Below the pieces are notes generated by a model. The model was not told the origin of the DNA, made no database searches, and worked only from the letters and a program-made list of their open reading frames with translations. From the IMG/VR virus record IMGVR_UViG_3300038406_000196, positions 55,207-119,206 of that record: a stretch of 64,000 nucleotides of DNA; one strand, 5' to 3'. How positions within the stretch are numbered: position 1 is the stretch's first letter; each line of letters begins with the position of its first letter. Below, one piece after another: positions 10,174 through 26,847 of this stretch. The stretch comes from a virus. The translations under genes and the position numbers were made by a program.

Positions 10174-10176
10174 CCG

Positions 10177-10368: not shown

Positions 10369-10371
10369 GGG

Positions 10372-10626: not shown

Positions 10627-10629
10627 GGG

Positions 10630-10785: not shown

Positions 10786-10788
10786 GCG

Positions 10789-11091: not shown

Positions 11092-11094
11092 GGG

Positions 11095-11379
11095 GTGGTC
11101 CTGACCAAGCGTCACATGTCCGTGCTGGAGTTGGTGGCCAGGGGTGCGATCACCCAACGGTTCCTGGCCATCTCGCTACGGCTACGTCCGGAAGGGCGCG
11201 GCTACGAGCAAGCCGTGGCGGCGAGGGAGCTTGCCGAGGCGGGCTATCTTCGACCGCCGGTGCGGTTCGCCCGACTGCTGCACCGCCGCTGCCCGGCTGT
11301 GTTCACCGCGCGCGGCTGGCACGCGTTCAACGACGCCAAGCTCCGCGAGGGCCAGGCGCTACCGCAGCGGGAGGGCTGA
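11095..11379 (+). CDS. Hypothetical protein (possible winged helix)
   Basis: LTKRHMSVLELVA...FTARG. Confidence 0.5.
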   Translation: MVLTKRHMSVLELVARGAITQRFLAISLRLRPEGRGYEQAVAARELAEAGYLRPPVRFARLLHRRCPAVFTARGWHAFNDAKLREGQALPQREG

Positions 11380-14059: not shown

Positions 14060-14096
14060 GACACCAAGGGTACTACGTGTACACTGGTGTCATGCC
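14055..14096. promoter_or_regulatory. Symmetric divergent promoter/operator
   Basis: Perfect 12-bp IR ggcatgacacca/tggtgtcatgcc containing both divergent ATGs. Confidence 0.55.
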
Positions 14097-14424
14097 TTGC
14101 GACGCCGTCCAGCCGATGACCGTCTACGTGTTCAGGGTTGGCTGCTACGCGAAGATCGGGCGAACCAACGACATACGGCGCCGCCTCGCCGAGGTGAGCG
14201 CACGCACGCCGGGGTGCCTATACCCATCTGACCTTGACGCTGGCGACGCCACGCTCGAAGGCTTCATGTACGGCGACGAAGAGGTCGAACGCGCCATCCA
14301 GGACGCTTTCAGCGATCTGCACGTCATGGGTGAGTGGTTCCGTTACGACGAACGTCTCGGGAAGTGGGCTCAACGGCGGAGGCAGACTCTCCCGCCGTTA
14401 CCGGGGCAACCGATCCGATTCTGA
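14092..14424 (+). CDS. GIY-YIG superfamily (T5orf172-like) protein
   Basis: VYVF...KIGRTNDIRRRL...ERAIQDAF...GEWF; start may be 14116. Confidence 0.8.
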   Translation: MPCDAVQPMTVYVFRVGCYAKIGRTNDIRRRLAEVSARTPGCLYPSDLDAGDATLEGFMYGDEEVERAIQDAFSDLHVMGEWFRYDERLGKWAQRRRQTLPPLPGQPIRF

Positions 14425-14437: not shown

Positions 14438-14617
14438 ATGCCACGCACTGGACCGCGGAAGCCACTGGTCGCCTTCCGCATGAGCGATGAGGGGCGTGCG
14501 TGGGCGGATCACCGAGCCCGCGAGGAGGGCGTGGACCGGTCGGAGTTGGTGCGGATCGCGATCGAGTACGCACAGCGAAACATGCCGGCCGGCTGGCGCC
14601 CTGATGGCGATCAGTGA
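14438..14617 (+). CDS. Ribbon-helix-helix (CopG-like) protein
   Basis: VAFRMSDE...AREEGVDRSELVRIAIEY. Confidence 0.75.
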   Translation: MPRTGPRKPLVAFRMSDEGRAWADHRAREEGVDRSELVRIAIEYAQRNMPAGWRPDGDQ

Positions 14618-14696
14618 GCCCAACCGGTCGGAGATGATCCGGATCGCGCTGGCCTACGCCGCCCGGCACATGCCGAAGGGATGGCGACCAGAGTGA
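14604..14696 (+). pseudogene. Remnant copy of the C-terminal half of the RHH gene
   Basis: NRSEMIRIALAYAARHMPKGWRP vs DRSELVRIAIEYAQRNMPAGWRP. Confidence 0.6.
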
Positions 14697-15397
14697 CGAC
14701 AACATCCGGTGATTCCATCGCGGATCTGATCCACCGAGACATTGAGGCCGTCATCAGGCCAGTGATCAACCACGCCCTGCGGAAGCAGCAGCGGTGGAAC
14801 GAACTGCTGCCCGATCCTGCATTCCACACTTACGCTCGGGTCAAGTGGTGGAGTCTCGGCTGCCTGATCGGTTGCGCCGTATTGCTACTCGTTGGCCTCG
14901 TGGCCGACCTGTGGTTGGCGGTAGTCCTCGCCGCCGGAACCGGCGTTGTTGTGGCCGCGGCCGTCTTCCTCCTCTCGGCTGGCTGCCTGTGGGGCTATAT
15001 ACGTGGTTTCAAGGAACGCGAACTGATCGAGTCGAGGAGCCGCATAGAGGCGGACCTACGGACGTGGCTCGACCTGCCTAGGGCGCCCGACGGCCACGGT
15101 CACCTGTACGTGATCCAGTTCTCCAACTACGTGATCAAGGTTGGGCAGACCAACCACATCGCCCGGCGCCTACCCGAGCACCGCCACGACGCCCGGACCT
15201 TCGACCTGACGATCACCAAGGTCTGGACCTCGCCGGCCCATGCGGACTACCTCGGCAATGAGACTCGCCTGCTTGTAGCGGTTGCGAAGATGCACGACGC
15301 AGGCAGGGCCAAGCGCGAGTACTTCCACGACGCGGAGTTCGACAAGGTAGTCACGCTGGCCGAGTCTCTAGTCGGTGCCGCGGTTCCGGCGACGTAG
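14693..15397 (+). CDS. Two-TM protein fused to a GIY-YIG/T5orf172-like domain
   Basis: Hydrophobic pair then GHLYVIQF...IKVGQT...RRLPEH...REYF. Confidence 0.7.
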   Translation: MTTTSGDSIADLIHRDIEAVIRPVINHALRKQQRWNELLPDPAFHTYARVKWWSLGCLIGCAVLLLVGLVADLWLAVVLAAGTGVVVAAAVFLLSAGCLWGYIRGFKERELIESRSRIEADLRTWLDLPRAPDGHGHLYVIQFSNYVIKVGQTNHIARRLPEHRHDARTFDLTITKVWTSPAHADYLGNETRLLVAVAKMHDAGRAKREYFHDAEFDKVVTLAESLVGAAVPAT

Positions 15398-15619
15398 CTC
15401 CTCCAGCGCGGCTTCTCTCGCATCGCCGGCCGGCATGGCCAGCACGGCGGCTAGGGCTTGCACGGAGTCCTCGGCAACCCGCCGATGCCCTTTGGCCATC
15501 CGGTATGAGCGGAGCAGGCCCTCGTCGGCGTAACGGCGGACCGTCTCTGTGTGGACGCCGCCGAGGATGCGGGCGGCAGCCCCGACCGTGAGCCACCTCG
15601 TGCCGCCGTCGCTCACCAC
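15368..15619 (-). CDS. MerR-like/Xis (BldC-like) HTH protein
   Basis: WLTVGAAARILGGVHTETVRRYADEGLL...GHRRV; gaggagg RBS. Confidence 0.85.
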   Translation of the reverse strand: MVSDGGTRWLTVGAAARILGGVHTETVRRYADEGLLRSYRMAKGHRRVAEDSVQALAAVLAMPAGDAREAALEELRRRNRGTD

Positions 15620-15633
15620 CCGACGTGATCCTC

Positions 15634-15765
15634 CTCGCAGGTCTCGCGAGTCTCGCGAGTTGCCCAATGATCGCAGACCTCGCTCTCCTGCGCGAGCACC
15701 GGCATGTCCAACCGAGCTGGAATCCTCACACGCCTCGCGGCTCTCACTAGACTCGCAATCCTCAC
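15634..15765. repeat. Two arrays of CTCRC with exact 9-bp period
   Basis: CTCGC at 15634/15643/15652; CTCRC at 15725/15734/15743/15752/15761. Confidence 0.75.
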
Positions 15766-15776
15766 TATCTTCTGCC

Positions 15777-16826
15777 ATGATGGTCAACGTGACTGACCCC
15801 CGACCGGATACCCGAACCGGACACCCGACCGCCGCCGCCCCGGATAGCCGGCCCGGTGTCCGGATGCTGCGCTTCACCCCACCCGGCGCCGCACTCGCCG
15901 TGGCGTTCGTCCTCCAGGTCGTCCTCATCACAGACCTGGTCGGCACCCAGCTGGCGGATAGGCAGGCGGATACCGGGCCGCCGTGGATCTGGTACACGCT
16001 CGCCGGGACGCTCGGGGTGGCCGTCGCGACCTCCATCGAGATGGCCGCCGCCTATCTGATGTGGCTGTACGACCAGCACCTGCGCAAGCGCGACAGCGTG
16101 TGGCAGCTGCGCCTCGGGATGGTCGGCTACGTGGCCGTATCCGCCATGGCCATCCACTGGTGGCTCGGATACCGCGGCCTGCCGGAACTGATCGCCTGGG
16201 TCCTGGCCGGCATGTCCGGCTCGTCGCTGTGGCTGTGGTCTCGCGGGTCTCGCTGGTCGCAGCGGCAGGAGATGCTTTCCGCAGGTCAGATCGACCCCGC
16301 CCTACCCCGGCTCCCCACCGCGGCGAAGCTGCTGCACCCTATCCGGTCGGTCATCACCACGTTCCTGATCTCGTGGGAGCCGGTATCCACCGTTGATGAG
16401 GCTCGGGCGCGGTACGAGTCGTGGCGGATAGGGCCGCACTGGTGGCTCCGGACACCCGCCGTACCCACCGAGGCGGATAGGCAAGCCCAGCGCAACGGTG
16501 ATGCGGTCACCGTCCGGCCGGATACCGACGCCGGACAGGAGCCGGACTCCCCCCTGGCTCCTGTCCGGAGCATCAACAGCCGGACAGGCCGGAACCGGCC
16601 GCGCCGGGCGGCCCGTGAGGTATCCGACGAGGAGCTGGCGCGCGAGCTGGATAGGAGTTTCCCGGACAGGGTGCCCGGTGTGCCGACGGCTATGCCGCAT
16701 CTCCGGAAGGTCTTCGGTTCGTGTTCCCGTGACCGGGCATCGGCGGCTGTCCGGCGGCTATCCGGTTGGCGTGACAGCGGACAGGTCGACACAGACGACG
16801 AGGAGCCTGAGGTGGTAGCGGCATGA
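15777..16826 (+). CDS. SpdB/DUF2637-like membrane protein with C-terminal HTH-like domain
   Basis: Four TM helices, Pro/Arg linker, helical C-terminal domain; first gene of the FtsK operon. Confidence 0.65.
   Translation: MMVNVTDPRPDTRTGHPTAAAPDSRPGVRMLRFTPPGAALAVAFVLQVVLITDLVGTQLADRQADTGPPWIWYTLAGTLGVAVATSIEMAAAYLMWLYDQHLRKRDSVWQLRLGMVGYVAVSAMAIHWWLGYRGLPELIAWVLAGMSGSSLWLWSRGSRWSQRQEMLSAGQIDPALPRLPTAAKLLHPIRSVITTFLISWEPVSTVDEARARYESWRIGPHWWLRTPAVPTEADRQAQRNGDAVTVRPDTDAGQEPDSPLAPVRSINSRTGRNRPRRAAREVSDEELARELDRSFPDRVPGVPTAMPHLRKVFGSCSRDRASAAVRRLSGWRDSGQVDTDDEEPEVVAA
15804..16784. repeat. About 24 dispersed SCGGAYAS-type octamers within the coding sequence
   Basis: e.g. 15804, 15817, 15840, 15954, 15966, 16424, 16448, 16473, 16518, 16531, 16580, 16662, 16777 forward; 15856, 16137, 16339, 16561, 16747, 16758 reverse. 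Confidence 0.75.
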
Positions 16827-16936
16827 ACATCTGGCGATCCCGCAAGTCCAAGGAGCCTGTCAACCGGCGGCTCCAGTGGCTGGGCACTGCCCTGCTGGTG
16901 GCCGGGGTCATCGGCCTGCTGGCGGAGTTGACGTGA
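16823..16936 (+). CDS. Small membrane peptide (37 aa, not in the ORF track)
   Basis: ATGA/GTGA coupling at both ends; one TM helix. Confidence 0.6.
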   Translation: MNIWRSRKSKEPVNRRLQWLGTALLVAGVIGLLAELT

Positions 16937-19900
16937 GCGAGTACGAGGTGCAGCCTCCGCGCGAGGACTTTGACGCCAAGCCACTGCCGGCGTGGAGGCG
17001 CAGCGGGTTGGCGGTTGGGCGGACGCTGGTGTGGCTGAGGCTGGTCCGGCCGGCTGGCGAGCCTGTGACCAGGGGAAACGGCCGCGGGTTGGTGCGGCGG
17101 GCCGGTCGGTGGCTGGTTGTGCGGGGGCTGGCGAGTGCGGCGTTCCGGCCGGGCCGGTGGGCTGCCGGGGGAGCCGCTCTGCTGCTGATTTCGCCTCTGC
17201 CGTGGCAGTCAATCCTGATTACTCTCAGTGCCTACGGCCTAACTCCTGTTGCGGCGACCTGTGATCGCTACGCGTCAAGGTCGACAACTATCCTATCGGC
17301 CGTGTCAAGGCGGGTCAAGAGCCTCAGGCTCGCCCGTCGACTCAAGAACGGCTGGCTGCCGGAGATGGGGCGGCTCGGTCTGACGCAACGCCGGGAGCGA
17401 CGGAACGAGACCATCACCATCGCCCCGAACCTCGGCACCATCACTCTCACCGACTGGGGCGTGCGGTGCGACCGCATCAGCCTCCAGGATCTCGGCCTGC
17501 CGGTGTCCGAACTCGCGAAGTACCGCGGGCACCTCGCGTCCCGGTTCCGGGTGCCGTGGTGCGCCATCGAGGAGGTCACCTCCGGCGTAGCCCAGATGGA
17601 GATGCGCCACTCCGACCCGCTGGCCGAGCCCGTCCGGGTGGAAGACCTGCCCGCGCCCAAGCGGCAGCTGCACGTGGTGACCCGAGTGACCGAGGAAGGC
17701 GACGGGCTGGAGCAGGAAGTGGTGCTCCCCCACTTGGTGATAGGCGGGCAAGGCTCGGGCAAGGCGCTGGCCCTGGATACTCCGATCCCCACCCCCAACG
17801 GCTGGACGACGATGGGGGCGCTACAGACCGGCGACCGCGTGTTCGACGAGCGCGGCCAGGCGTGCAAGGTCACCAAGGCGTACCCCGTCCTGCACGGCCG
17901 CCCCTGCTACGAGGTGGAGTTCTCCGACGGCACCGTGATCGTTGCCGACGCTGACCACCAGTGGATCACCGAGACCCGAGCCGAACGGGTACGTGCCGGG
18001 CGAGGCGGCTACAGCGGTCGTGCGCCGTACTCCGACGAACAGCTCGCGCTAGTGAGGTCCCGCGCTGCGGCTGCGATGGTCGAGCCGGACCGGCTGGTAA
18101 CCCTGCCCGAGATAGCGGCAGAGGTCGGGCTGCATCCCACCTCTGGGGTGCTTCACCGAGTAGGTCGGCAGATCGGCGTCGCGGGCGTGGTGCTGCGGCC
18201 GAACACGACACCCCGGGGGAAGCCCTGCCAGTCACCCAAGCAGGGCTACCCCCGCCAACTGCTGTTCAAAGCACTCCTTGAGGCGATGTCGACGCCGAAG
18301 AACTCGCATCGAATTGCGAGGCACGGCGGGACCGTGACCACAGCTGAGATCGCAAGCACCCTGCGTGAGGTCGGTGGCGCGGCAAGGCATGCCGTTCTGG
18401 TGGCTGGGCCTCTTGACTACCCGGAAGCCGAACTCCCGGTTCCCCCGTACGTGCTCGGGGCGTGGCTTGGGGACGGTACCTCGGCGTCGGCAACGTTCAC
18501 CACGGCCGATCCGGAGATCATCGACCACATCAGGGCCGAAGGCGTGGTGGCCAAGCACTACGGTCGCTATCTCTACGGGCTTTCGCTGCCCTTTGTCGTT
18601 GACGAGCGGCAGCGGCGGTGCCCCTGCGGGAATTGGGCGCTGCCGCGGCTGGACCGTTGTGGGCTATGCGCTTCACGAAACGCAGCCACCTGCGTCGTGT
18701 GTGGCGCACGTTGCCGGGGTGTTCGGTGTGGTTCCTGCGTGAACGCCACCCGTACCCTGACCGGGACTCTCCGCACGCTCGGCGTTCTGCCTGGCAAGCA
18801 CATTCCCCGGGCGTACCTGCAAGCATCCGTCCAGCAACGCCGTGCCCTCCTGGCCGGGCTACTGGACACCGACGGCAGCTGCACGGTTCGCGGTACCGTG
18901 GAGTTCTATTCCACGAACGAACGCCTAGCCCGCGGCGTTCTTGAGCTGTCCATCGGCCTTGGCTACAAGGCAACGCTGAGGAGTAAGACGGCCAGGCTTG
19001 AGGGTCGAGACTGCGGCGTCGCCTGGACCGTAGCTTTCACCGCGCACGAGCCGGTGTTCCGTCTGGCGAGAAAGGCGGAACGACAGCGCTTCGTGACCCA
19101 GCGTTCGCGGAGCCGGCGGCGGTACATCATCTCCGCCGGTCCGGTGCCGTCCGTCCCGGTGCGGTGCATCCAGGTCGACAGCCCGAGTCACCTCTACCTG
19201 GCCAGCGAGGGCTGCGTAGCTACTCATAACAGCACGGACCTGTGGACATACTTCCACCAGCTCCAGGAAGCCGAGATCCCGTTCCGGGCCCGGGTGTTCG
19301 ACCCGAAGGGCGGCATGGAGCTGGGCGAGCTGCGTCACGCCGCGTACGTCTACGAGTCGAAGGCGACCGCGTGGCCGGACTTCCTCGGGAAGGGGTTGAC
19401 GGCGCTGGAGGGCCGCCAGAGGAGCCTGGCTCGGCGTGGTTGGCAGAAGCTGTACCGCTTCACCGAGCACGACCCGCTGGACGTGATGGTGATCGACGAA
19501 CTGCTCGCGGTGCTGGCGATGCGGAACAAGGACGTGCAGATCGGCAAGACCGGCACGCTGAAGGCGGGTGACGCGTTCGACCTGTACCTGAGCCAGGCCC
19601 GCGCGGCCGGGTTCACCGTCATCGCCCTGTCCCAGCTCGGGCAGAAGGAGCTGATCGGTCATGCGCGGGGCCTGTTCCCGCACCTCACCGTGCTGCGGGT
19701 TCCCCAGTCGGAGAAGGAGATCGTGGACCGGCTGCTCGGGTCGGCCGACCGGTATCCGGCGCACCTGATCCCGGCTACGCGGTGGAGCGCCGGTATCGGC
19801 TACTCGCGCATGGAGTCAGGTCGGATCGTCCGTACCCGCGGAGCGCGGCTGTCCGAGGACCAGCGGGAGCTAGTGGTCGAGCGGATGGAGTCCGCGAAGC

Positions 19901-19950
19901 GGGGCCGGGCGAAAGACCAAGACCATGAGATGGCGGAGGCGGCAGCATGA
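16933..19950 (+). CDS. FtsK/SpoIIIE (TraB-like) ATPase interrupted by an intein
   Basis: PHLVIGGQGSGK|S Walker A, FDPKGGMEL, VMVIDE Walker B, ARAAGF...LSQ. Confidence 0.9.
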   Translation: MSEYEVQPPREDFDAKPLPAWRRSGLAVGRTLVWLRLVRPAGEPVTRGNGRGLVRRAGRWLVVRGLASAAFRPGRWAAGGAALLLISPLPWQSILITLSAYGLTPVAATCDRYASRSTTILSAVSRRVKSLRLARRLKNGWLPEMGRLGLTQRRERRNETITIAPNLGTITLTDWGVRCDRISLQDLGLPVSELAKYRGHLASRFRVPWCAIEEVTSGVAQMEMRHSDPLAEPVRVEDLPAPKRQLHVVTRVTEEGDGLEQEVVLPHLVIGGQGSGKALALDTPIPTPNGWTTMGALQTGDRVFDERGQACKVTKAYPVLHGRPCYEVEFSDGTVIVADADHQWITETRAERVRAGRGGYSGRAPYSDEQLALVRSRAAAAMVEPDRLVTLPEIAAEVGLHPTSGVLHRVGRQIGVAGVVLRPNTTPRGKPCQSPKQGYPRQLLFKALLEAMSTPKNSHRIARHGGTVTTAEIASTLREVGGAARHAVLVAGPLDYPEAELPVPPYVLGAWLGDGTSASATFTTADPEIIDHIRAEGVVAKHYGRYLYGLSLPFVVDERQRRCPCGNWALPRLDRCGLCASRNAATCVVCGARCRGVRCGSCVNATRTLTGTLRTLGVLPGKHIPRAYLQASVQQRRALLAGLLDTDGSCTVRGTVEFYSTNERLARGVLELSIGLGYKATLRSKTARLEGRDCGVAWTVAFTAHEPVFRLARKAERQRFVTQRSRSRRRYIISAGPVPSVPVRCIQVDSPSHLYLASEGCVATHNSTDLWTYFHQLQEAEIPFRARVFDPKGGMELGELRHAAYVYESKATAWPDFLGKGLTALEGRQRSLARRGWQKLYRFTEHDPLDVMVIDELLAVLAMRNKDVQIGKTGTLKAGDAFDLYLSQARAAGFTVIALSQLGQKELIGHARGLFPHLTVLRVPQSEKEIVDRLLGSADRYPAHLIPATRWSAGIGYSRMESGRIVRTRGARLSEDQRELVVERMESAKRGRAKDQDHEMAEAAA
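17290..17318 (-). promoter_or_regulatory. Antisense promoter candidate inside the FtsK gene
   Basis: TTGACC-N17-TAGGAT on the minus strand in a locally AT-richer patch. Confidence 0.45.
17764..19230 (+). mobile_element. Class 3 intein (489 aa) with LAGLIDADG homing endonuclease
   Basis: Starts ALALDTPIPTP, ends ATHN|S; W (ADHQW), C (VRCIQV), T (THN) triad; LGAWLGDG and LLAGLLDTDG motifs. Confidence 0.92.
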
Positions 19951-20324
19951 CCACCGCGGGCCGACGCAACCTCGGCGGTGGACTGATGCTGACCGCGGTA
20001 GGCGATGCGGACCTGGCGCCGCTCGGCGTGATCGAGGGTGTCGAGCTGGACGAGTGCGTCTTCGTGATCGACAACGGGCGCCTGGACGTGGCCGGCGAGC
20101 GGATGGTCCGGACCAGCGCCGAGCGCGCCGCCGTTTGGGTGGTGTTCACCCGTCATCGACTCACGTGCCCCGGCGGGGTCGATCCGGTGCTGTGTGGCTG
20201 CACGCCCGACCCGGAGGACTTCCACGTCTACGAAGCCGAGCCCGGCGCGGAGGGCGCGATACCGGTTCGGCCAGACGAGCCAGCCGGCCCGCGGCGGCGC
20301 GAGAAGGCGGGAGCGGCGGCATGA
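19947..20324 (+). CDS. Hypothetical protein
   Basis: ATGA coupling. Confidence 0.6.
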   Translation: MTTAGRRNLGGGLMLTAVGDADLAPLGVIEGVELDECVFVIDNGRLDVAGERMVRTSAERAAVWVVFTRHRLTCPGGVDPVLCGCTPDPEDFHVYEAEPGAEGAIPVRPDEPAGPRRREKAGAAA

Positions 20325-20866
20325 CCGAGCGGGAACACTACGAGTTCCTGACCGGCCCACCCGAGTGGGTGCAGCGGCAGGTCGAGCAGCGGTGGCGCAC
20401 CGGGAAACTGCTCGGCGTCACCCAGGCCAGGCCGGACCCTGAGGGCTGCCGGGTTCGGCTGCGGCTGGCCGGCCCCGCACCGGTCCAGCCTGCCCGGCAG
20501 ACGACACCTGCCCGACGCTCCGCTGCGGATCCGGCCGCGGTGTGGCCTCGGACGACCCTGCTGGGACAGACCCGGCCGGTGGCGGCGAGGGACTGGAGCC
20601 CCGCAGTGCGGCCGGTGCTACTGGCCGTAGGCGGGCTGGCCCTGCTGGTTGGGGTGCTGTGGCTGGTCGTGGCCGCGGTGACCGGTGCCGTCCGGGCTGC
20701 CACGCAGAACGTGCCGGTGTTGCTGCTGGCCCTGATCGCTGCGGGCATCGCCGGCCGGCTGTGGCTGCGGTGGTGGCTGCGGAACCGGGGCCGCTCCAGT
20801 GGCGGCAGTGGCGGGGCGTGCTCCGGGCTGGTGCAGCACTGCAACGGCTGCTCGGAGCACCGCTGA
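20321..20866 (+). CDS. Membrane protein (Spd-like) with C-terminal C...HCxxC
   Basis: Two TM helices; CSGLVQHCNGC. Confidence 0.65.
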   Translation: MTEREHYEFLTGPPEWVQRQVEQRWRTGKLLGVTQARPDPEGCRVRLRLAGPAPVQPARQTTPARRSAADPAAVWPRTTLLGQTRPVAARDWSPAVRPVLLAVGGLALLVGVLWLVVAAVTGAVRAATQNVPVLLLALIAAGIAGRLWLRWWLRNRGRSSGGSGGACSGLVQHCNGCSEHR

Positions 20867-21039
20867 TGGCGTTCATGTTCGTACCCGCGCTGATGGCGGC
20901 ACTGACCCCGGACTGCCCGATAGAGGAGCTGTTGATGGACCTTTGGATCTTGGTAGCCGGCGGGGTGGTCGCCGTCCTTGTGTTCTACGGCTTCGTGGCG
21001 CTGCACCTCAAGCGGCAATACCAGCGGCGGAGGAGGTGA
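20866..21039 (+). CDS. Small membrane protein
   Basis: TM helix plus basic tail; start may be 20935. Confidence 0.5.
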   Translation: MAFMFVPALMAALTPDCPIEELLMDLWILVAGGVVAVLVFYGFVALHLKRQYQRRRR

Positions 21040-21155
21040 CGGTGGTGAGCCGTGCCAGGACGAGAGCCAGGACACGACGACGCCGAGCCACGCGTCGCGA
21101 CCGTCACGACCGGCGCACCCGCCGGCCCATGACCCGCAGAAAGGGGGTGAGAAAC

Positions 21156-21341
21156 ATGAAGGAGACCTTCTGGGTTTTCGTCTCTTGGGTTGCAGCAACC
21201 GGCGGCCTGGCCTACGTGACCATGAACGCCGTTCCCGAGTCTGACCCGATGCTGATGGTGGGTGGCAGCGCCGCCCTGTCGGGGCTCGTGGTCGGCGTTG
21301 TCGCCCACATGGTGGTGCCGAAGCGGAAGAAGCGGGCGTGA
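21156..21341 (+). CDS. Small two-TM protein
   Basis: RBS, two hydrophobic segments. Confidence 0.6.
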   Translation: MKETFWVFVSWVAATGGLAYVTMNAVPESDPMLMVGGSAALSGLVVGVVAHMVVPKRKKRA

Positions 21342-21559
21342 ACTTCGTCCCGGTCCAGCCGCGCCGCCAGCCACGCAGGTCCGGCTGGCGGCTGTGGCTG
21401 CTGTTCGCCTGGCGGTGGGCGGTCGTCGGCTTCCTGGCCTCAGCCACCGTCTGGGCGACGGTGCAGTGGGCCACCGAACCCGACGTGCCCGCCTCTGCTG
21501 TTCCGGTGGTGGCCGGGCTGTACGTGCTGATGGTGTTCGCTGCGGCGGCACCCCGATGA
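21338..21559 (+). CDS. Small two-TM protein
   Basis: GTGA coupling. Confidence 0.6.
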   Translation: MNFVPVQPRRQPRRSGWRLWLLFAWRWAVVGFLASATVWATVQWATEPDVPASAVPVVAGLYVLMVFAAAAPR

Positions 21560-21631
21560 CCGGGAGGGAGGTGAGGACATGACGACTGCGGCACAGGGCC
21601 TGCGTAAGCGCTGACCGGTAGGAGGAGCGAC

Positions 21632-21727
21632 ATGGCACGGGACAACACGCCGCGGTGCCCCCACTGCGGTGCTCGCAACCCGCACGGCACCGCCTGCCAG
21701 GCCAAGCCGCGCGACAACAGCAAGTAG
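21632..21727 (+). CDS. 31-aa zinc-finger-like peptide (not in the ORF track)
   Basis: aggaggag RBS; CPHCGARNPHGTAC. Confidence 0.5.
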   Translation: MARDNTPRCPHCGARNPHGTACQAKPRDNSK

Positions 21728-21823
21728 CGCCGGGCGGTGAACGCCTGTCCGGCGCGCGTCCCCGTCCCGGACAGGTCTTGACCGGCCGGAACCGGCACCA
21801 ACGATGGAGAGAGGCAGACAGCA

Positions 21824-22099
21824 GTGGACCACGAGTGGTTCGGCGCGCTGGTCGACCAGTATCCGATCGCCCTCATCATCTGGGGCGCGATCGGGCTGAT
21901 CCTGGGCGGCTTCTTTCCGGGCTGGCCCGGTAAACGCTCGTACCCGACGATCGCGATCGTGATGTTGGCGGGCTCTGTTGCCGTGCTGGCCGGGTGGGCT
22001 GGCTGGCCGTTCGATCTCGCGTTCATCGCCGGCTGGCTCGTCCTGACCGGCTGGTGCGTGATCGGCGCCCTGCTCGCGCCGGCCGGCGGGCGCCGATGA
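21824..22099 (+). CDS. Three-TM membrane protein
   Basis: Hydrophobic segments. Confidence 0.65.
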   Translation: MDHEWFGALVDQYPIALIIWGAIGLILGGFFPGWPGKRSYPTIAIVMLAGSVAVLAGWAGWPFDLAFIAGWLVLTGWCVIGALLAPAGGRR

Positions 22100-22629
22100 G
22101 CGGGCGGGTGCTGGGCCCGGCGATCCTGGTGGTCTGCCTGGTCGCTGGCGTGTATGTGATGGAAAACCGCGCCGAGCAGGCGGGCGCCGACCCTGCGGGT
22201 TCGAGCTCGAACCGGGGCTGCCCGGCGGAGGTGGCCGGCTGGGACCGGAAGCAGACCGCCAACGCCAAGGTCATCGTCCGGGTGGCCGGCGAGCTGGACA
22301 TGCCCGACCGGGCCGTGGTGGTGGCTCTGGCAACGGCGATGCAGGAGTCCAACGTGCGCAACGTTGACCACGGCCCACCCGGTGAGGACTCGGCGGGCGT
22401 GTTCCAGCAGCGGCCGAGCCAGGGGTGGGGGAGCCGTGCCCAGGTGATGGACGTCGAGCACGCCGCGACGTCGTTCTTCCTGTCGCTGCGGAAGGTTGAC
22501 GGCTGGGAGGACATGCGGGTCACCGACGCCGCCCAGCGGGTACAGCGGTCAGCGTTCCCGGAGGCGTACCAGAAGCATGTCCCAGCGGCGCGGAAGCTGG
22601 CGAAGAAGCTGCGGGGCTGCCGGCGCTGA
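22096..22629 (+). CDS. Secreted lysozyme-like (peptidoglycan-acting) domain protein
   Basis: Signal/TM then ALATAMQES...DSAGVFQQRPSQGWG...AAQRVQRSAFP, a domain often paired with NlpC/P60 or M23 in actinobacteria. Confidence 0.75.
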   Translation: MSGRVLGPAILVVCLVAGVYVMENRAEQAGADPAGSSSNRGCPAEVAGWDRKQTANAKVIVRVAGELDMPDRAVVVALATAMQESNVRNVDHGPPGEDSAGVFQQRPSQGWGSRAQVMDVEHAATSFFLSLRKVDGWEDMRVTDAAQRVQRSAFPEAYQKHVPAARKLAKKLRGCRR

Positions 22630-22666
22630 TCGCCCCGTGACCCGCAGCCTGAGCGCTGGGGCCTGC

Positions 22667-23155
22667 TCACGGGATGCGGTCAAGTGCATCGACTGGCCAG
22701 CGGGCCTTAGCCCACTGTGCGGCGTCGGCGATCATCGCGGGAAGCTCCGCCGGCGTGTCCAGGGCGGACACTTCGCCGAGTGATACCCAGCGAGCGGCGC
22801 CGACTTCATCGAGCTGTGCGGAGAGGTCTCCCGAGGACGCCCGCAGCACGTAGACAAGGTCGATGTGGCGGTGGAACCCGACCTTGGTGTCGGTGACGTC
22901 CATCTCGACGATCGCGTAGGGCGGGGCGTGGGTGGTGACTGCGGGGTGGGTGAACAGCGGGTCGCTGATGACCTGCGTCTGCAGGCTTGTCTCCTCCAGC
23001 ACTTCACGCTGGGCGGCCTGGGCCGGGTCTTCGTTGGGGTCGATGTGCCCGCCGGGGTAGAGCCATTGGCCGAGCTTGTTGTGGTGCACCAGCAGCACCT
23101 GCCCGTGGTCGTCGAAGACGATCGCTGAGGCGGTGAAGTGGCGGATGCCGGTCAT
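22667..23155 (-). CDS. Nudix hydrolase
   Basis: PGGHIDPNEDPAQAAQREVLEETSL Nudix box. Confidence 0.92.
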   Translation of the reverse strand: MTGIRHFTASAIVFDDHGQVLLVHHNKLGQWLYPGGHIDPNEDPAQAAQREVLEETSLQTQVISDPLFTHPAVTTHAPPYAIVEMDVTDTKVGFHRHIDLVYVLRASSGDLSAQLDEVGAARWVSLGEVSALDTPAELPAMIADAAQWAKARWPVDALDRIP

Positions 23156-23215
23156 GGTGTAGTTCCTCCGCGGGCGATAGAGGCAACGCGTGGCGCCGCC
23201 GACCAGTTGGGATCG

Positions 23216-23776
23216 CTAGAACAACGACGGGGCTTCCTGACCCTGCAGTGCCTCGACGGTCCCCGCAGACGTGGCGAGGTGCACGAACAGCCGAGCGGTG
23301 ACCAGAGCGTCGTACGTCGCCCGGTGGGGCTTCAGGTTAGGCGCGAGGTCGGCGTCCAGGTTCAGGTCGGCGACCAGTGCGCCGAGCCGGTAGCTGGGCC
23401 GGCCCGGCATCAGCCGGCGAGCAAGCTTCAGGGTGTCGAGCACCGTCGGTGGCTGCCAATCGGTGAGCTTGCTCCGTAGGACGCCGACGTCGACGTGGGC
23501 TGCGTGGGCTACAAGGACGTCCACCGCGAGGGCGTCGCGTACCTCGCTCTCGACGGCGGCGAAGTCGGGAGCGTCTGCCACGTCCTGGTTGGTGATCCCG
23601 TGGACCTTGGTCGCCATGTAGGCGATCTTCGACGCGGGGCGCAACAGCCACGACGACGGATCTCCGACGTTCCCGCCGACGATGGGGGCCACGGCCAACT
23701 CGACCAGGTCGGGTGGCTGCTGGCCGTTGCCCTCCACGTCAACCACTGCGTATCGGCAGCCCGTCAAGTCGATCAT
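23216..23776 (-). CDS. DEDDh 3'-5' exonuclease (DnaQ-like)
   Basis: VVDVEG, AHAAHVD, LDTL, HRATYDA. Confidence 0.9.
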   Translation of the reverse strand: MIDLTGCRYAVVDVEGNGQQPPDLVELAVAPIVGGNVGDPSSWLLRPASKIAYMATKVHGITNQDVADAPDFAAVESEVRDALAVDVLVAHAAHVDVGVLRSKLTDWQPPTVLDTLKLARRLMPGRPSYRLGALVADLNLDADLAPNLKPHRATYDALVTARLFVHLATSAGTVEALQGQEAPSLF

Positions 23777-23916
23777 CCGATGCAGCCTATGTCAGCGCGG
23801 CCGTGCCTCGGGGCATGATGCGGGTGGCTGATGCTAGGGCGGCGGGAACCCAGTAGCGCCCGCGCGCGGACGCGTTGTGCACCTGCCTGACCAGCGCCTC
23901 TCGAACGTTGGTGCCG

Positions 23917-24093
23917 CTAGTCGCCCTGCGGGTCGTGACGAGGGCAGCCCGGGACGCCGCACCGGCTCCGGTGGCCGGGCCGGCACAGCTGTTCCAGTTC
24001 CTCGCGGCTCATGTCCCGCAGGTCGGCGGTGGCCTCCATGATCCGCTGCTCCCGGTCCGGGTCATCCGGTGGCATCTGGCGTGGGCGGGTCAT
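23917..24093 (-). CDS. Small hypothetical protein
   Basis: ATGA coupling to the XRE gene. Confidence 0.5.
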   Translation of the reverse strand: MTRPRQMPPDDPDREQRIMEATADLRDMSREELEQLCRPGHRSRCGVPGCPRHDPQGD

Positions 24094-25292
24094 ACCGCCA
24101 GTGTCTCCCACGGATGCGGACCGGGAGCGGCGTACCCCCGCAGCTCGTCCAGCTCGTCGGAGCGGTGGCCGGCGGGGACCACTGCGAGCAGGTCGGCAAC
24201 GCCGAGGCCGACGATCCGTACGTCGCCGGGAAGGGTCCGGGCCGCCAGAAGGGCGTAGCGGATGCCGTCGGCAACGTCGCCTGCCCGGACCATCGCCAAC
24301 CCGTAGTAGATCTTGGCGTCGGCGTGCCACACCGGCAAGCCACGCAGCAGCGGCTCGGCGTCGGCCCACACCCGCTGCACCGCAGGCCACGGGCCGGTGC
24401 GGCACTCCAGGTAGTGGGCGAACTGCATGGTCCGCTGCACCGCCCCGCCGGGGGTTTCGGCGTCGGGGAGGTGCTCGGCGAGGTCACGCATCCCACCGAC
24501 CGCCTGCCGGCCGGCGGCAAGGTCGCCGGTGAGGGCGTGGACGTGCACCAGCGCCGAGTACGCCTCCACCGCGCCCAAGCTGGCGAGTCGGCTGAGTGTC
24601 AGCGCCTCGTCGGCGCGGGTCACCGTCTCGGTCACCGTGGCACCTTCGTACAGGCTGCGGGATGCGGTCCGGCCGCGGGTCCACACCTGCACCGGCTTGT
24701 CTCCAGCCCGGTCGGCCAGCGCAGTGGCGGTGCGGTACCAGCCCCATGCGTCGGGGATGTCGCCGGCGTTGCCGCGCCACAGCCCGTACAGCTGCCCCAG
24801 CTGGGCTGCGGCGCGGGTGATCTCGGGGGTGGGCTTGTCGGCGAGCTGCTGGCGGGCGACCATCAGCTGCCCGACGAGCGACTGGCCGTAGGCGGGCGAC
24901 GGGTCGACGGCGAGCCGGCGGGCATAGTCGCCGACCACCGCGTCCCAGTCGGTTGGCTGGTCGGCGTTGTCGAGTAGCCCGTTGCGGACGATGCCTGCCA
25001 GCGCTTCCAGGCCGGGGAGTCCAGCTCCACCTGCGGTGGTGATCCCGGCCAGTAGTGTCCTGCGCCTCATGACGTCTCCCTCCATCTCCAGCCCCACCAG
25101 CGTGGTCAGCAGCGGGGTAGTACCGAGCGCGCGGTCACACGCTGCGGCGAGTTCGGGTGTGGCTCGTCGCTTCCCGGTCTCCACGTAGCTGATCAACTGC
25201 TTGGTCGTGTATGCGCGTGCTGCCAGGGCTGCCGTGCTGAGTCGCGCGGCAACCCGAATTGATCTCAACACGTCGCCGACGGATTCCGCCAT
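24090..25292 (-). CDS. XRE-family HTH regulator with helical-repeat C-terminus
   Basis: LRSIR...QLISYVETGKRRAT; MRRRTLL linker; TPR-like tail. Confidence 0.85.
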   Translation of the reverse strand: MAESVGDVLRSIRVAARLSTAALAARAYTTKQLISYVETGKRRATPELAAACDRALGTTPLLTTLVGLEMEGDVMRRRTLLAGITTAGGAGLPGLEALAGIVRNGLLDNADQPTDWDAVVGDYARRLAVDPSPAYGQSLVGQLMVARQQLADKPTPEITRAAAQLGQLYGLWRGNAGDIPDAWGWYRTATALADRAGDKPVQVWTRGRTASRSLYEGATVTETVTRADEALTLSRLASLGAVEAYSALVHVHALTGDLAAGRQAVGGMRDLAEHLPDAETPGGAVQRTMQFAHYLECRTGPWPAVQRVWADAEPLLRGLPVWHADAKIYYGLAMVRAGDVADGIRYALLAARTLPGDVRIVGLGVADLLAVVPAGHRSDELDELRGYAAPGPHPWETLAV

Positions 25293-25598
25293 GATCGGAC
25301 CTCTTTGTTGACCGCTGTTGACGGTTGGGGTCTTTGTCCCACGATAGGTGAGCGGCAGGCTACCAGGTAGAGGTGATGGCCGTCACGAACGGCGTCCGTA
25401 GGGCTCCGGCCCGGCCATCACCTCGGGGCCTGGACCTTCCCGCCCGCGCCGGCTGCCTCCCCCAGGGGCCGGAGCGACAGCGGCCTCACAAGCTGCGGGG
25501 TTCAGTCCTCCGCCAGAGACGGGGGTGCGGGCGATCCGGCCGGATTGTCCCCGCACCCCCGTCCCCAGACGCGAGAGGTGGAACCGTTGAGCGCGAAG

Positions 25599-25931
25599 CT
25601 ATCTCACGACGTGCACGTATGCCCTCACGAAGAACGACTCCACCATCGCCGCGTGCAGATGACCGGCCACGGCGACATCGCCCTCGATCCCACACACCAC
25701 GTGCACGTGGACCTGGCCGTCCACGACCTCCCCGGTGCCGGTCAGCTCGCCCGGCTGGTCGTAGACGGTCACGATGTCCCGGGTGGCGTCGTGCGCGGCC
25801 ATGGTGGAGATCACGAACGAGTCGACACCGCCGACCAGCTGCATGCCCGCGTTGCGGATCCCGCGTTCGGCGACCGCCTTCCGCAGCTCCTCCACCACAT
25901 CACCTTCGCGGATGTCAATCAGAATCGTCAC
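25599..25931 (-). CDS. PPC (DUF296) domain protein
   Basis: ELTGTG...VHVHVVCG...AGHL. Confidence 0.8.
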   Translation of the reverse strand: MTILIDIREGDVVEELRKAVAERGIRNAGMQLVGGVDSFVISTMAAHDATRDIVTVYDQPGELTGTGEVVDGQVHVHVVCGIEGDVAVAGHLHAAMVESFFVRAYVHVVR

Positions 25932-26649
25932 GTAGCGCTCCCGTCACGGCTAGGGCCATGGCTCTGATGTTCTCCTTGGACTGCTCCACACGCATCGCCT
26001 CGACGATCGCGGCCGAGTGCTCGGTGCCTGACATCAGCCACGCCGCGCACCAGCGGGCCCCGGAGTCGGCCGGGTTGGTCAGCTCGGCCACCAGGTGCAG
26101 CGGGTCGACCCCGACCCGCTGGCGGACCGCAGCCAGGTACAGCCGCCGCGTGTCCGCGTCGCGTAGCAGGGCAAGGGCCACCTCGTCGGCCAGCTCCGGC
26201 GAGCCCGTCTTCGCCAAGATCCCGGCAGCGTTCACCCGCAGCACCGCGCTGGAACCGTCGTGGAGCCAGGACAGCAACTGGGCGACCGACTTGGTTTCCC
26301 GGACGGCGAGCCGCTGGATCGCGTGGTCGACCGCGTGTGTCGTCTGGACGGTCGCCAACGGTCCGTCGTCACCGGCGGCGACCGTCGAATACATGTCACG
26401 GGCGGTGGATGCCTCGTCGGCGCCGACGGCGATAGAGCCGACGAGGGAGACAGCGGCGAACTGGAACAGGTGGCGTCGATGCATGGACAGAGCCCTCTCG
26501 TATGCCTGGATCACGGCGGGTGATGCGGTGCGCCTGCCGGCTTCCACGTTGTGGAGGTGCCCCTTGGAGATGTGGCCGATCGCAGCCACGTCGCCGAGGG
26601 ACATACCGGCAGCATCGCGAGCCTGCCTCAGTAGGTCGCCTACGGCCAT
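25915..26649 (-). CDS. XRE-family HTH regulator with HEAT-like C-terminus
   Basis: LRQARDAAGMSL...SKGHLHNVEAGRR; LRVNAAGILAK. Confidence 0.85.
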   Translation of the reverse strand: MAVGDLLRQARDAAGMSLGDVAAIGHISKGHLHNVEAGRRTASPAVIQAYERALSMHRRHLFQFAAVSLVGSIAVGADEASTARDMYSTVAAGDDGPLATVQTTHAVDHAIQRLAVRETKSVAQLLSWLHDGSSAVLRVNAAGILAKTGSPELADEVALALLRDADTRRLYLAAVRQRVGVDPLHLVAELTNPADSGARWCAAWLMSGTEHSAAIVEAMRVEQSKENIRAMALAVTGALRDDSD

Positions 26650-26847
26650 GATCCGCTCCGATCTGAATACGCCTGAATACGCCGAGAGTCTTCAGGTCTT
26701 GAGAGCTGCGTCACAGACTACCGGCATGGCCGGTACGGCGCCGGGACGTTCCTTACGGCGAGGAAGTCCGTACCGGCCAACCCCAGACCGGGGGTGCGGC
26801 ACCCGCCCGATGCCGCACCCCCACCCCCCCCGGACGGAAGGTGGACC

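Follow-up and report, generated by a model that had tools for sequence, protein, structure and literature searches.

A conserved module with an intein-split FtsK-type ATPase in a large phage genome and its possible role in mycelial DNA transfer

INTRODUCTION

The TraB-Spd systems for dsDNA transfer and spreading of the Streptomyces plasmids pSVH1 and pIJ101 and of the AICEs pSAM2 and pMR2 combine a membrane-anchored FtsK-like translocase and small membrane "spread" proteins encoded in one operon, with a regulator close by, components that interact with peptidoglycan, and a cis-acting site made of short repeats (Thoma et al. 2015; pMR2 gene table). The known clt sites are direct 8-bp repeats that are read by TraB (Thoma et al. 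2015).

The suggestion that Spd/TraB-like genes serve phages in spreading DNA has already been published, and a few phages are known to carry such genes. The Streptomyces plasmid-phage φZL12 (pZL12; 90,435 bp, circular; NC_013420; relative, pSLE1) resembles the phage analyzed here in infecting actinomycetes and in its large genome, which measures about 90 kb. In pZL12 an FtsK/SpoIIIE-type gene adjoins genes for membrane proteins, a Nudix protein and a GntR regulator and lies near structural genes. A 2010 paper on pZL12 reportedly, going by its title, characterized replication, transfer and a plasmid/lytic phage cycle.

Here we describe a gene block of similar composition in the 119,206-bp record of an uncultured virus (G000). 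"The window" is the whole stretch of DNA that was analyzed, the last 64 kb of this record (positions 55207 to 119206). A first-pass annotation of the window had described an AICE/plasmid-type transfer module, and the parts of the block do parallel the tra/spd regions of actinomycete plasmids. By analogy, we give about even chances to the proposal that the module works like Streptomyces-type plasmid/AICE transfer sets and spreads phage DNA through mycelium.

RESULTS

Features of the block and its surroundings are collected in Table 1. The block at 15.4 to 22.6 kb is a native, conserved module of the phage genome. The head-tail-lysis genes that had been placed on the same DNA were located on the record. 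Of the genes shared with G001, a 94,928-bp (95-kb) relative whose record is closed by terminal repeats, 21 of 22 occur in the same order round the G001 record; among them are those for the serine recombinase (62%) and the membrane protein (69%), as well as the lysin and tail-region genes. Because of this collinearity, the record is read as a single phage genome and not as a prophage with a neighboring AICE. Terminase, portal, protease/capsid and tape measure are all encoded in both G001 and G003. The claim that there is only one integrase holds for the window but not for the record, which encodes a tyrosine integrase as well. The phage family is best explained as temperate siphoviruses with large genomes (95 to at least 119 kb) that infect mycelial actinomycetes. 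Relatives were found in Micromonospora, Dactylosporangium and Winogradskya, one of them being a prophage in Winogradskya humida, and the hosts, judged from these matches, are probably Micromonosporaceae.

Table 1. Coordinates of the block, its neighbors and other phage genes (window positions unless marked as record positions)
Feature	Position	Strand	Basis or description
Large serine recombinase	196-1641		sole integrase of the window
HTH_17/MerR-type (Xis-like) DNA-binding protein	15368-15778	-	Pfam, PHROG; divergent from module
CGGAYA array, 22 sites in 979 bp	15805-16783	.	candidate cis-acting site (operator and/or clt)
Polytopic membrane protein ("SpdB-like")	15864-16826	+	alignment A1; conserved helical C-terminal domain
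37-aa single-TM peptide gene	16823-16936	+	GC3-based gene call, hydropathy
ATPase N-extein	16876-17763	+	TM hairpin, helical region, beta domain; ends in Walker A GQGSGK
Intein, 489 aa	17764-19230	+	Ala1 ... THN, +1 Ser; DnaB-type splicing domain and LAGLIDADG homing endonuclease
ATPase C-extein	19231-19950	+	Walker B VMVIDE; lacks C-terminal winged-helix domain
112-aa soluble protein	19986-20324	+	gene call
Small membrane protein, 2 TM	20321-20866	+	gene call, hydropathy
Small membrane protein	20866-21039	+	gene call, hydropathy
Small membrane protein	21129-21341	+	gene call, hydropathy
Small membrane protein	21338-21559	+	gene call, hydropathy
Small membrane protein, 3 TM	21824-22099	+	gene call, hydropathy
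Signal-anchored muramidase (lysozyme-like peptidoglycan hydrolase)	22096-22629	+	final gene of plus-strand block
Nudix hydrolase	22667-23155	-	Pfam NUDIX, 74.1 bits
DEDDh/RNase T-type exonuclease	23216-23776	-	Pfam RNase_T, 74.9 bits
Lysin	36610-37614		same record as module
Tape measure	40991-45040		same record as module
Major head protein	61029-62003		same record as module
Protease	62434-63993		same record as module
Tyrosine integrase	record 7842-8885		second integrase of the record, outside the window

The record is metagenomic, and the contigs of a second assembler break at several branch points within 17 to 37 kb, as might be expected of an assembly chimera in which the module and the structural genes came from separate molecules. 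Those contigs nevertheless cover positions 17000 to 36999 without a gap and with zero differences, in a sample that is possibly the record's own source and so not independent, and single contigs span 17902-22237, 23025-29738, and 31228 to beyond 36999. Evidence independent of that sample is provided by the synteny with G001 to either side of the block and by the same linkage in G002, G003 and W. humida. We judge the probability of a chimera practically negligible.

The proposed search for the module in other phages found the same slot filled in G001, G002 and G003, so that each of the four related phage records has the block in this slot; terminal repeats close two of these records. The gene order in G000 to G003 is a divergent HTH gene, the membrane-protein gene, and then small TM genes and a TM/P-loop ATPase on the same strand. 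The ATPases of the slot form three lineages that are mutually unalignable by BLAST; one is common to G002 and G003, and G000 and G001 each have a different one. These comparisons indicate that the slot is retained while the ATPase gene is replaced. The G000 ATPase lineage had no match in 50,697 phage records, and its closest relatives are FtsK/SpoIIIE proteins of actinomycete plasmids such as pMR2; therefore, the ATPase cassette was probably acquired from an AICE/plasmid-type element. The same two observations would suit an independent AICE or plasmid fragment, inserted with its own ends into the phage or beside a prophage. However, neither an integrase nor Rep nor att-like repeats belonging to the block were found, which argues that it is not an inserted AICE, and it has no homologs of the integrase, Rep, Xis or DUF2637 protein of pMR2. 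No flanking direct repeat exceeded about 20 nt (imperfect), the slot is shared by four phage records, and the flanking HTH and membrane-protein genes are 51 to 69% conserved across them. We consider such an insertion highly improbable; the att ends that would mark it were sought and not found, and the block is part of a tailed-phage genome.

The Xis-like regulator of the first-pass annotation was borne out. Its C-terminal HTH_17 domain scored 31.6 bits in Pfam (cutoff, 27), and the protein matched PHROG 66 ("excisionase and transcriptional regulator"). The open frame covers 15368-16036(-); read by eye, 15778 is the likely ATG, and the real CDS is probably 15368-15778. G001 has a divergent HTH_17-type gene (h23; Pfam, 28.2 bits) in the equivalent position, and alignment placed such genes there in G002 and G003 also. 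The label "SpdB-like" for the next gene fared less well. The protein is a polytopic membrane protein, and in a language-model look-up its nearest clusters were DUF2637 (0.92/0.91/0.91), with a "Protein spdB" cluster at 0.90, but every HMM and profile test failed: Pfam has no family for the protein, DUF2637/SpdB models matched 0 of 14 family members at an E value of ≤1, and a profile comparison with the DUF2637 protein of pMR2 yielded a probability of 1%. It is possibly a remote DUF2637 relative, and "SpdB" is a lead rather than a membership. All 48 relatives are annotated as hypothetical; homologs are present in G001, G002, G003 and the W. humida prophage.

This gene and its promoter region carry the densest CGGAYA cluster of the record (the 1-kb interval with the highest density), holding 22 of the 108 CGGAYA sites in the window with a consensus of about SCGGAYASS. 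Four copies fall within the 85-bp divergent promoter region, three of them on the same strand and one on the opposite strand, and the remaining sites lie inside the membrane-protein gene, in either orientation and every codon phase. CGGATA was the top 6-mer of an unbiased scan, with 12 occurrences observed in the array versus 0.23 expected (P = 3.7e-17). In the homologs from G001 and G002 the same word ranked first, and the array is unique within each of G000, G001 and G002 when compared with control windows; the W. humida prophage copy of the gene has no CGGAYA array. The words differ between G002 and G003, whose ATPases are of one lineage, whereas G000, G001 and G002 share the word but differ in their ATPases. 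Because the array does not track the ATPase lineage, recognition of the TraB type is not its simplest reading.

The ATPase ORF (16876-19950; start codon position uncertain) is interrupted in its P-loop by an intein between GQGSGK and ST. The boundaries are corroborated by the intein-free ortholog P0051, which reads GQGSGKSTDLW and whose N part is 64% identical to the N-extein. As the intein splits the P-loop, the ATPase is predicted to be inactive unless spliced. The splicing domain is homologous to those of mycobacterial DnaB inteins (PDB 6rix, 6riy and 6bs8/6own; E values, 5.4e-32 to 2.7e-31), and PI-SceI matched at 8.5e-4. The host protein here is an FtsK-type translocase rather than a helicase, and, unlike the mycobacterial inteins, this one carries an inserted LAGLIDADG endonuclease (Pfam LAGLIDADG_3, 29.9 bits). 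The mycobacterial inteins also lie in the P-loop region of DnaB and belong to class 3. The present intein starts with Ala and, by eye, has W (DHQW), C (VRCIQVD) and T (ATHN) where the class 3 triplet would be expected, which makes it a candidate class 3 intein.

The description of the ATPase as FtsK/TraB-like was upheld by fold and by relatives. For the C-extein, 87 shorter relatives were found, of which most contain PF01580 and bear the name FtsK/SpoIIIE, and FtsK/SpoIIIE proteins of actinomycete plasmids matched it at 30 to 35%. Plasmid matches of the ATPase include the protein of the AICE-like plasmid pMR2. The window's own ATPase and its nearest ortholog, P0051, fall below the Pfam FtsK_SpoIIIE cutoff, and P0060 lies above it (28.4 versus 24 bits). 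A model of P0051 (pLDDT, 89.1) best matched FtsK motor domains (E value, 1.5e-16; TM score, 0.61 to 0.65), followed by TcpA, a coupling protein of conjugation; it terminates in a single helix, and the G000 lineage is without the clt-reading C-terminal winged-helix domain of TraB. The search also returned EccC/EssC ATPase domains (E values, 2.8e-12 to 1e-9), which, together with the several small membrane proteins and the wall hydrolase adjoining the ATPase, would fit a small type VII (EssC/EccC-like) apparatus that exports phage proteins through the membrane proteins. We regard this as quite improbable, since FtsK motors and TcpA outscore EccC/EssC, EccC/EssC carry several ATPase domains and the present protein one, and, among named proteins, its closest relatives are the FtsK/SpoIIIE proteins of plasmids and AICEs.

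The block encodes the predicted minimum of six small TM proteins (37, 181, 57, 70, 73 and 91 aa). Neither the 112-aa protein nor the five membrane proteins encoded at 20321-22099 matched a Pfam, PHROG or PADLOC family. The lysozyme-like secreted protein has a signal anchor and matched solved muramidases (PDB 8b2h, E value of 7e-13; 8b2e, 3.8e-12) and the hydrolase domains of PHROG tape-measure and endolysin families (1.3e-30 and 5.5e-15). In pSAM2, the Nudix protein Pif gives conjugal immunity, and the Nudix gene of the window had been read in that light. The gene is present, but the Pif-like reading is weak: the gene is of a generic kind, its strand is opposite to that of the block, and its partner is a gene for a DEDDh exonuclease. 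The pair converges on the block, and its membership in the module is doubtful; Nudix genes also occur inside the G003 block and the pZL12 transfer region.

DISCUSSION

We propose that the module, with its divergently transcribed HTH_17 regulator, the polytopic membrane protein whose gene and promoter bear the CGGAYA array, the ATPase, six small membrane proteins and an exported muramidase, most likely acts as such sets do on Streptomyces-type plasmids and AICEs. The membrane-anchored FtsK-fold ATPase would have to splice the DnaB-type intein from its P-loop before binding ATP and, as a hexamer, could then pump double-stranded phage DNA (replicating, excised or in plasmid form) across septal cross-walls or hyphal contacts. 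A passage would be formed and opened by the membrane proteins together with the wall hydrolase, the short-repeat array may mark DNA for movement or regulate the operon, and the phage genome would spread through the mycelium without virions. Weighing against this reading are the Pfam scores below the cutoff, the missing winged-helix domain, the failed SpdB/DUF2637 tests, an array that does not track the ATPase lineage and is absent from the W. humida copy, the other roles suggested for FtsK-like genes of isolated Streptomyces phages, and the dependence of the ATPase on splicing.

The module might instead serve the phage's own cycle within one cell or compartment: it might segregate or resolve genomes that have replicated or are in plasmid form (into spores, for instance), assist the genome in entering or leaving, or exclude superinfecting phage or conjugative DNA at the membrane. 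For FtsK-like genes annotated in isolated Streptomyces phages, the authors have suggested functions in replication or development; the array follows the membrane-protein gene and not the ATPase lineage, as an operator or partition-like site would; and neither a Rep nor a ParB of plasmid type, which would make a transferable replicon, was found. On the other hand, a membrane-anchored FtsK motor with many small TM proteins and an exported muramidase resembles tra/spd operons and exceeds the needs of segregation, and PADLOC defense families matched 0 of 7 core proteins. We judge a role in the phage's own cycle possible but somewhat unlikely.

The transfer reading can be set against the known systems. 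Unlike the TraB-Spd plasmids and AICEs, the block lacks its own Rep, Int/Xis pair and att, its membrane protein is not a detectable SpdB/DUF2637 member, and its ATPase lacks the clt-reading domain. Streptomyces clt consists of a few direct 8-bp repeats, whereas the array repeats a 6- to 9-nt word in both orientations over about 1 kb of coding sequence.

The G001 ATPase matched TraB/"DNA translocase FtsK" genes on 37 actinomycete plasmids (27 to 40%); it also had matches in 9 phage records, Hiyaa and φZL12 among them. Several actinophages (Streptomyces Hiyaa, Galactica, Spocter and Keanu; Thermobifida P1312; Saccharomonospora PIS136) encode a TM and FtsK-like ATPase that is 31 to 32% identical to that of G001, and isolated actinophages have a large membrane protein a few genes upstream of it. 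Hiyaa gp101-gp102 correspond to G001 h21-h20, the small gene upstream being thus conserved as well. No FtsK-like gene of these isolates, and none in the phage collection, matched the window's ATPase at an E value of ≤1e-5, and the A1 membrane-protein profile matched 0 of the 34 annotated Hiyaa/ZL12 proteins tested.

In pZL12, the product of gene 71 is 28.7% identical to the G001 ATPase, and ZL12-76 is a homolog of the window's Nudix protein. The window's ATPase belongs to a lineage other than that of pZL12, and no relative of the membrane-protein family could be detected in ZL12. ParB above the cutoff was not found in the window's phage, unlike pSLE1 and pZL12, which carry ParA/ParB. The intein and the CGGAYA array further set this phage apart from pZL12.

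Genome context and contiguity of the block

Genes in the window, whose DNA has a G+C content of about 70% and no tRNA genes, were called by third-position G+C, and the main features are collected in the table. In the 12-kb stretch 3' of the transfer-type block (15.4-22.6 kb), genes for a DEDDh exonuclease and XRE/DUF5753 regulators accompany those for the binding protein and permease of an ABC transporter. Outside the window, the first 55 kb of the 119,206-bp record (G000) has genes for DnaB, a helicase, a tyrosine integrase, a transposase and methyltransferases. The single integrase counted in the first-pass annotation holds for the window, where there is one recombinase, but not for the record, in which the tyrosine integrase is a second.

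Features of the window, with positions in nucleotides
Feature	Position	Strand	Remarks
Large serine recombinase	196-1641	-	Leftmost gene in window
GntR regulator, then plus-strand phage-type early genes	Left part of window	+	Strand is that of the early genes (PNKP phosphatase, RlaP, XRE regulator, phage ProQ-C-like protein)
T5orf172/MUG113-type genes (two)	14077-14424 and 14681-15397		Directly upstream of block; second with two TM helices
Polytopic membrane protein	15864-16826	+	48 relatives, all unnamed, mostly metagenomic
FtsK-type ATPase, including intein	16876-19950	+	
Amidase (lysis)	36610-37614	-	
Tape measure	40991-45040	-	
Major head protein	61029-62003	-	
Protease	62434-63993	-	Last gene before record end

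G001, a 94,928-bp IMG/VR record closed by a 91-bp terminal repeat, was reached by a search with the block's membrane protein. Of 22 G000 genes with homologs in G001, 21 are collinear, in inverted order, over the complete circle: the series starts at record gene g4, takes in the serine recombinase (62%), the membrane protein (69%) and the lysin, and continues past the G001 ends to the tail region. Also related are G003 (97,469 bp, 70-bp repeat), which is a second closed record, and G002, a 50.9-kb fragment. G001 and G003 each carry genes for terminase, portal, protease/capsid and tape measure. Because of this collinearity and the structural genes of the closed relatives, we conclude on sequence grounds that G000 is a single large phage genome short of a few kilobases. 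The relatives of its capsid are 45-kb siphoviruses of Gordonia, Mycobacterium and Arthrobacter, in which the capsid gene lies ~5 kb from the left genome end; this would explain why the portal and terminase, neither of which was found with the queries used, are missing from the G000 record.

The cell-like ABC genes suggested another arrangement, in which host DNA lies between an AICE and a prophage. This is countered by the collinearity with G001 and by the closed relatives; the ABC genes and regulators are cargo specific to G000. IMG/VR records of this size thus can be single phage genomes with cell-like cargo, here ABC-transporter genes, rather than a prophage plus host. The NMT1/THI5-type substrate-binding protein and permease genes (30440-32429) are missing from G001 and look cell-derived, and no adjoining ATPase component was noticed. 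Relatives of the binding protein, at 56 genome loci, reached only 35-54%, with the permease alone co-occurring (41 of 56), so no close host genome was found and an empty-site comparison was impossible.

The first-pass annotation had proposed that contiguity be confirmed. Contigs produced by a second assembler from the probable source sample tiled positions 17000-36999 with zero gaps and zero differences, in a comparison that is not independent of the source, and collinearity with the closed G001 points the same way. Single contigs bridged the ATPase and TM genes, the Nudix gene and regulators, and the permease and lysis/tail genes. A second sample gave short pieces nearly identical to G000. 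Sequencing runs X2 to X4 gave short pieces only, none of them bridging. Apparent 20- to 24-letter "joints" in the contig comparison were disregarded because their sides were <30 letters.

Several other features of the window were observed. Five consecutive small genes (10171-11097) share one reading frame and have similar junctions (purine-rich ...GGAGGAC/GGGGGC, TGA, one codon, GTG/ATG) that resemble a stereotyped translational-coupling joint. A 70-nt tandem duplication (14535-14692, 73% identity) gives two similar short peptides. A 1,221-amino-acid (aa) tail-region open reading frame (50050-53715) is very strongly skewed (G over C, T over A), lacks a PHROG match and shares 45% identity with h122 of G001 across about 360 aa. 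Two PHROG 506 transposase genes are present, at window 55791-56930 and record 33045-34502; one lies within the structural-gene region and adjoins a glycosyltransferase and other sugar-modifying genes.

The block occupies a conserved slot with a replaced ATPase

A search for the module in other phages, as the first-pass annotation had advised, found it in G001, G002 and G003. In all three, a divergent HTH gene lies 5' of the membrane-protein gene, and same-strand small TM genes and a large TM/P-loop ATPase lie 3'. The membrane-protein gene also was found in Winogradskya humida NBRC 14915, a mycelial species in culture, on a prophage contig (G005:C149) where it is linked with integrase, protease, capsid and tape-measure homologs. 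This relative is integrated, and G000 itself has two recombinases.

The ATPases fall into three lineages that are mutually unalignable by BLAST: that of G000, that of G001, and that of G002 and G003 (60% identical). The G001 ATPase matches TraB or "DNA translocase FtsK" genes on 37 actinomycete plasmids (27-40%) and nine phage records, including Hiyaa, Galactica, Spocter, Keanu, Thermobifida P1312, φZL12 and Saccharomonospora PIS136; the small gene upstream of it also is conserved with Hiyaa. For the G000 lineage, matches were to FtsK/SpoIIIE genes on replicons of Gordonia, Nonomuraea and Micromonospora, including the AICE-like plasmid pMR2; among 50,697 phage records it had none. Next to its FtsK-like gene, G001 encodes h18 (L066:14282-15226), an LPXTG-anchored protein with GmrSD_C nuclease and helix-hairpin-helix domains; a smaller LPXTG protein of the window (3871-4329) shares 51% over 53 aa with it.

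The ATPase is split by an intein and resembles FtsK motors

The Walker A motif of the window ATPase, GQGSGK, is interrupted immediately by a 489-aa insertion (17764-19230) that starts with ALALDT, ends with THN and is followed by a +1 Ser. The ortholog P0051 (502 aa) is without these 489 residues and reads GQGSGKSTDLW. Mycobacterial DnaB mini-inteins are homologs of the insertion (E value of 5.4e-32) and its closest solved relatives, and it carries a LAGLIDADG endonuclease (LAGLIDADG_3, 29.9 bits). It is in frame, lies in a conserved motif, is absent from the ortholog, has HINT homology, and has a C-terminal HN and a +1 nucleophile, which identifies it as an intein. Its first residue is Ala, and by eye it has W, C and T residues that we take to be the class-3 signature. 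Predicted splicing would restore Walker A (GQGSGK/ST). Walker B (VMVIDE) is present, and hydrophobic helices at about residues 85 to 125 of the N-extein form an N-terminal membrane anchor.

The Pfam FtsK_SpoIIIE model (PF01580) matched neither the window protein, its two extein halves, nor a six-frame scan of the record, because the intein cuts the domain. P0051 (85% to the C-extein and 64% to the N-extein) is intein-free and has no PF01580 match. Another relative, P0060 (61%), passes, with 28.4 bits against a cutoff of 24. Of 87 shorter relatives of the C-extein, most carry precomputed PF01580 annotation, and several from Micromonospora are named FtsK/SpoIIIE. A search of IMG/VR by peptide patterns returned no C-extein relatives. 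Among 401 sampled Micromonosporaceae genomes, a close C-extein relative occurred in one, as a frameshifted remnant that is uninformative on context. The remnant, in genome G134:C6 (L090:2413-3140), belongs to the G000 ATPase lineage (69% over 134 aa), and ~5 kb from it is an NMT1-type binding-protein gene with 38% to that of the window.

Since phmmer of P0051 against the PDB gave zero matches, a fold search was used. An AlphaFold2 model was built with 46 aligned relatives for P0051 rather than for the split protein of the window (pLDDT, 89.1; pTM, 0.80), and the N-terminal helices are present in it. The top 10 Foldseek matches in the PDB were all FtsK motor domains (E values of 1.5e-16 to 7.7e-15; TM score by target, 0.61 to 0.65). 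TcpA ranked second and EccC/EssC third, so an EccC-like reading of the ATPase, which the search did return, scores below an FtsK motor. The P0051 model thus shows the FtsK motor fold, with alpha and beta RecA-like domains. A C-terminal winged-helix (gamma-like) domain that would read clt, the TraB recognition site of Streptomyces plasmids, is missing: the model ends in one long helix (residues 470 to 501), and the C-extein terminates 239 aa past the P-loop. The ATPases of G001 to G003 are longer (677 to 897 aa) and, by eye, may include such a domain.

Other genes of the block

The genes listed in the first-pass annotation (regulator, membrane protein, FtsK-type ATPase, six small TM genes, muramidase and Nudix) all were recovered, and the observation was extended. 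The regulator matched HTH_17 with 31.6 bits (cutoff, 27). Some relatives of the membrane protein are on 95- to 127-kb contigs, and others are in Dactylosporangium and Winogradskya genomes. Its description as SpdB-like had mixed fortunes. Among 14 members of its family, none matched the Pfam models DUF2637 (PF10935), SpdB_N or HTH_SpdB_C at an E value of ≤1; hhalign against the DUF2637 protein of pMR2 gave a probability of 1%; and tblastn with the membrane protein against 72,556 plasmids at 1e-3 found no match. The learned-feature neighbors of the protein in the Atlas, however, are DUF2637 clusters in 18 of 30 cases (best, 0.92, with 202 of 256 features shared), with an SpdB cluster at 0.90. 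The best structural match also was to a DUF2637 cluster (TM score, 0.45), from a poor model (pLDDT, 0.60).

Five of the six small TM genes lie downstream of the ATPase, beside one soluble protein, and the sixth encodes a 37-aa TM peptide upstream of it. They are followed by a signal-anchored muramidase (matches to PDB 8b2h/8b2e). The Nudix and DEDDh exonuclease genes are on the opposite strand, converging on the block. The Nudix protein is generic, and a Pif-like role drew no support from similarity. In G003, the portal k35 (L074:7630-10011) carries a C-terminal Nudix domain (residues 613 to 738; PHROG 1198). PADLOC gave no match for the core block genes.

A CGGAYA repeat array in the membrane-protein gene

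An unbiased k-mer scan returned CGGATA as the top word in G000 (12 copies versus 0.23 expected), CGGACA in G001 (15 versus 1.17) and the same CGGAYA word in G002 (31 versus 1.45). G003 differs, its top word being CCGACC (26 versus 4.08). The word reaches its highest density per 1-kb window at the membrane-protein gene in G000, G001 and G002 alike; in G000, positions 15805-16783 hold 22 of the 108 CGGAYA sites of the window, with both orientations and every codon phase represented. At the 5' side the copies run along one strand with 13- to 14- or 7- to 8-bp spacing in the divergent promoter (in G002, at the gene start), and the spacing of the 3' copies is identical between G000 and G001. The promoter-proximal repeats of G000 lie at 15805-15862. 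In 40 random G000 windows used as controls, the best 6-mer P value never fell below 3.9e-6, one window excepted; that window, from record positions 1-55206, holds 10 CTCGAG sites (P value of 5.7e-17). The repeat array is real and is a candidate cis site.

The array is absent from the W. humida copy of the gene, and tandem- and direct-repeat scans found no classic direct 8-bp clt. Because the G000 ATPase lineage is without a clt-reading domain, and because the enriched word and the ATPase lineage do not go together across G000 to G003, the array may act as an operator or may be recognized by a protein other than the ATPase. The HTH_17 proteins were too divergent for their covariation with the motif to be judged.

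The block is not an AICE insertion

The first-pass annotation had set against its own reading the case that the block is an independent AICE insertion with its own att ends. The Tra-like ATPase, the TM proteins and the candidate repeat array may correspond to the Tra, Spd and clt of AICEs. No integrase was found between window positions 13 and 26 kb, and the two recombinases of the record are 14 kb and 62 kb from the block. No att-like repeats flank it; direct repeats there are ≤20 nt and imperfect. The Rep of pMR2, the sole Rep type queried, found nothing in G000 to G003 at an E value of ≤0.01, and there was no Rep family among the Pfam and PHROG matches for the block. The gene table of pMR2 is the classic AICE set, and of its 15 proteins the ATPase alone has a counterpart in the block; its integrase matches the distant tyrosine integrases of the phages, outside the block. 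An AICE insertion was rejected on Int, on att and on the Rep type queried.

Interpretation and relation to known systems

The gene content of the block and its conservation agree better with a TraB/Spd-type membrane DNA-translocation apparatus than with the alternatives examined, and from these we infer its function. The proposal of a phage carrying a transfer module is partly supported in that the module is native, in a slot conserved in G001 to G003, and in that the P0051 model has the FtsK motor fold; transfer itself we infer.

A more specific proposal, which we consider rather improbable, is that these are "conjugative phages" in which an intein-armed TraB-like pump and an array address move the phage genome as double-stranded DNA (dsDNA), with ATPase cassettes swapped. 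The CGGAYA array would serve, within the membrane-protein gene, as a clt-type address borne by the phage; the pump would read it, perhaps by way of the C-terminal helical domain of the membrane protein or of the HTH_17 protein instead of the ATPase. Splicing of the DnaB-type intein in the P-loop would be the switch that arms the pump. Together with the Spd-like membrane proteins and the muramidase, the pump would move the whole ~100-kb phage genome as dsDNA across septa or between mycelia. The slot would be retained while ATPase cassettes are exchanged among phages, plasmids and AICEs. 

In mycelial actinomycetes, phages meet a host whose compartments are connected. If a phage encodes a DNA pump together with spread proteins, it would gain a second, virion-free means of propagation, and the distinction between phage, plasmid and AICE would become less sharp. 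The G000 family adds a conserved slot with a replaced ATPase, a concrete candidate cis site and an intein-dependent putative pump.

Phage-borne Spd/TraB-like genes are already known as a kind. A TraB-Spd complex has been described, with clt as direct 8-bp repeats (Thoma et al. 2015). FtsK-like genes have been noted in several isolated Streptomyces phages, with replication or development suggested as their roles, and virion-free spread has been suggested briefly for SpdB2 homologues. The plasmid-phage pZL12/φZL12 is cited for characterized replication, transfer and lytic cycle, and virion-free transfer apparently has been shown for this one plasmid-phage. ParB_N gave no match above the cutoff in G000 to G003 (best, 20.3 bits, in G001). 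New with respect to the literature searched are this phage family, its intein-split ATPase lineage, the replacement of cassettes within a fixed slot, and the motif array. In the pZL12-type plasmid-phage, as here, tailed-phage structural genes and an FtsK-like transfer-type gene share one replicon.
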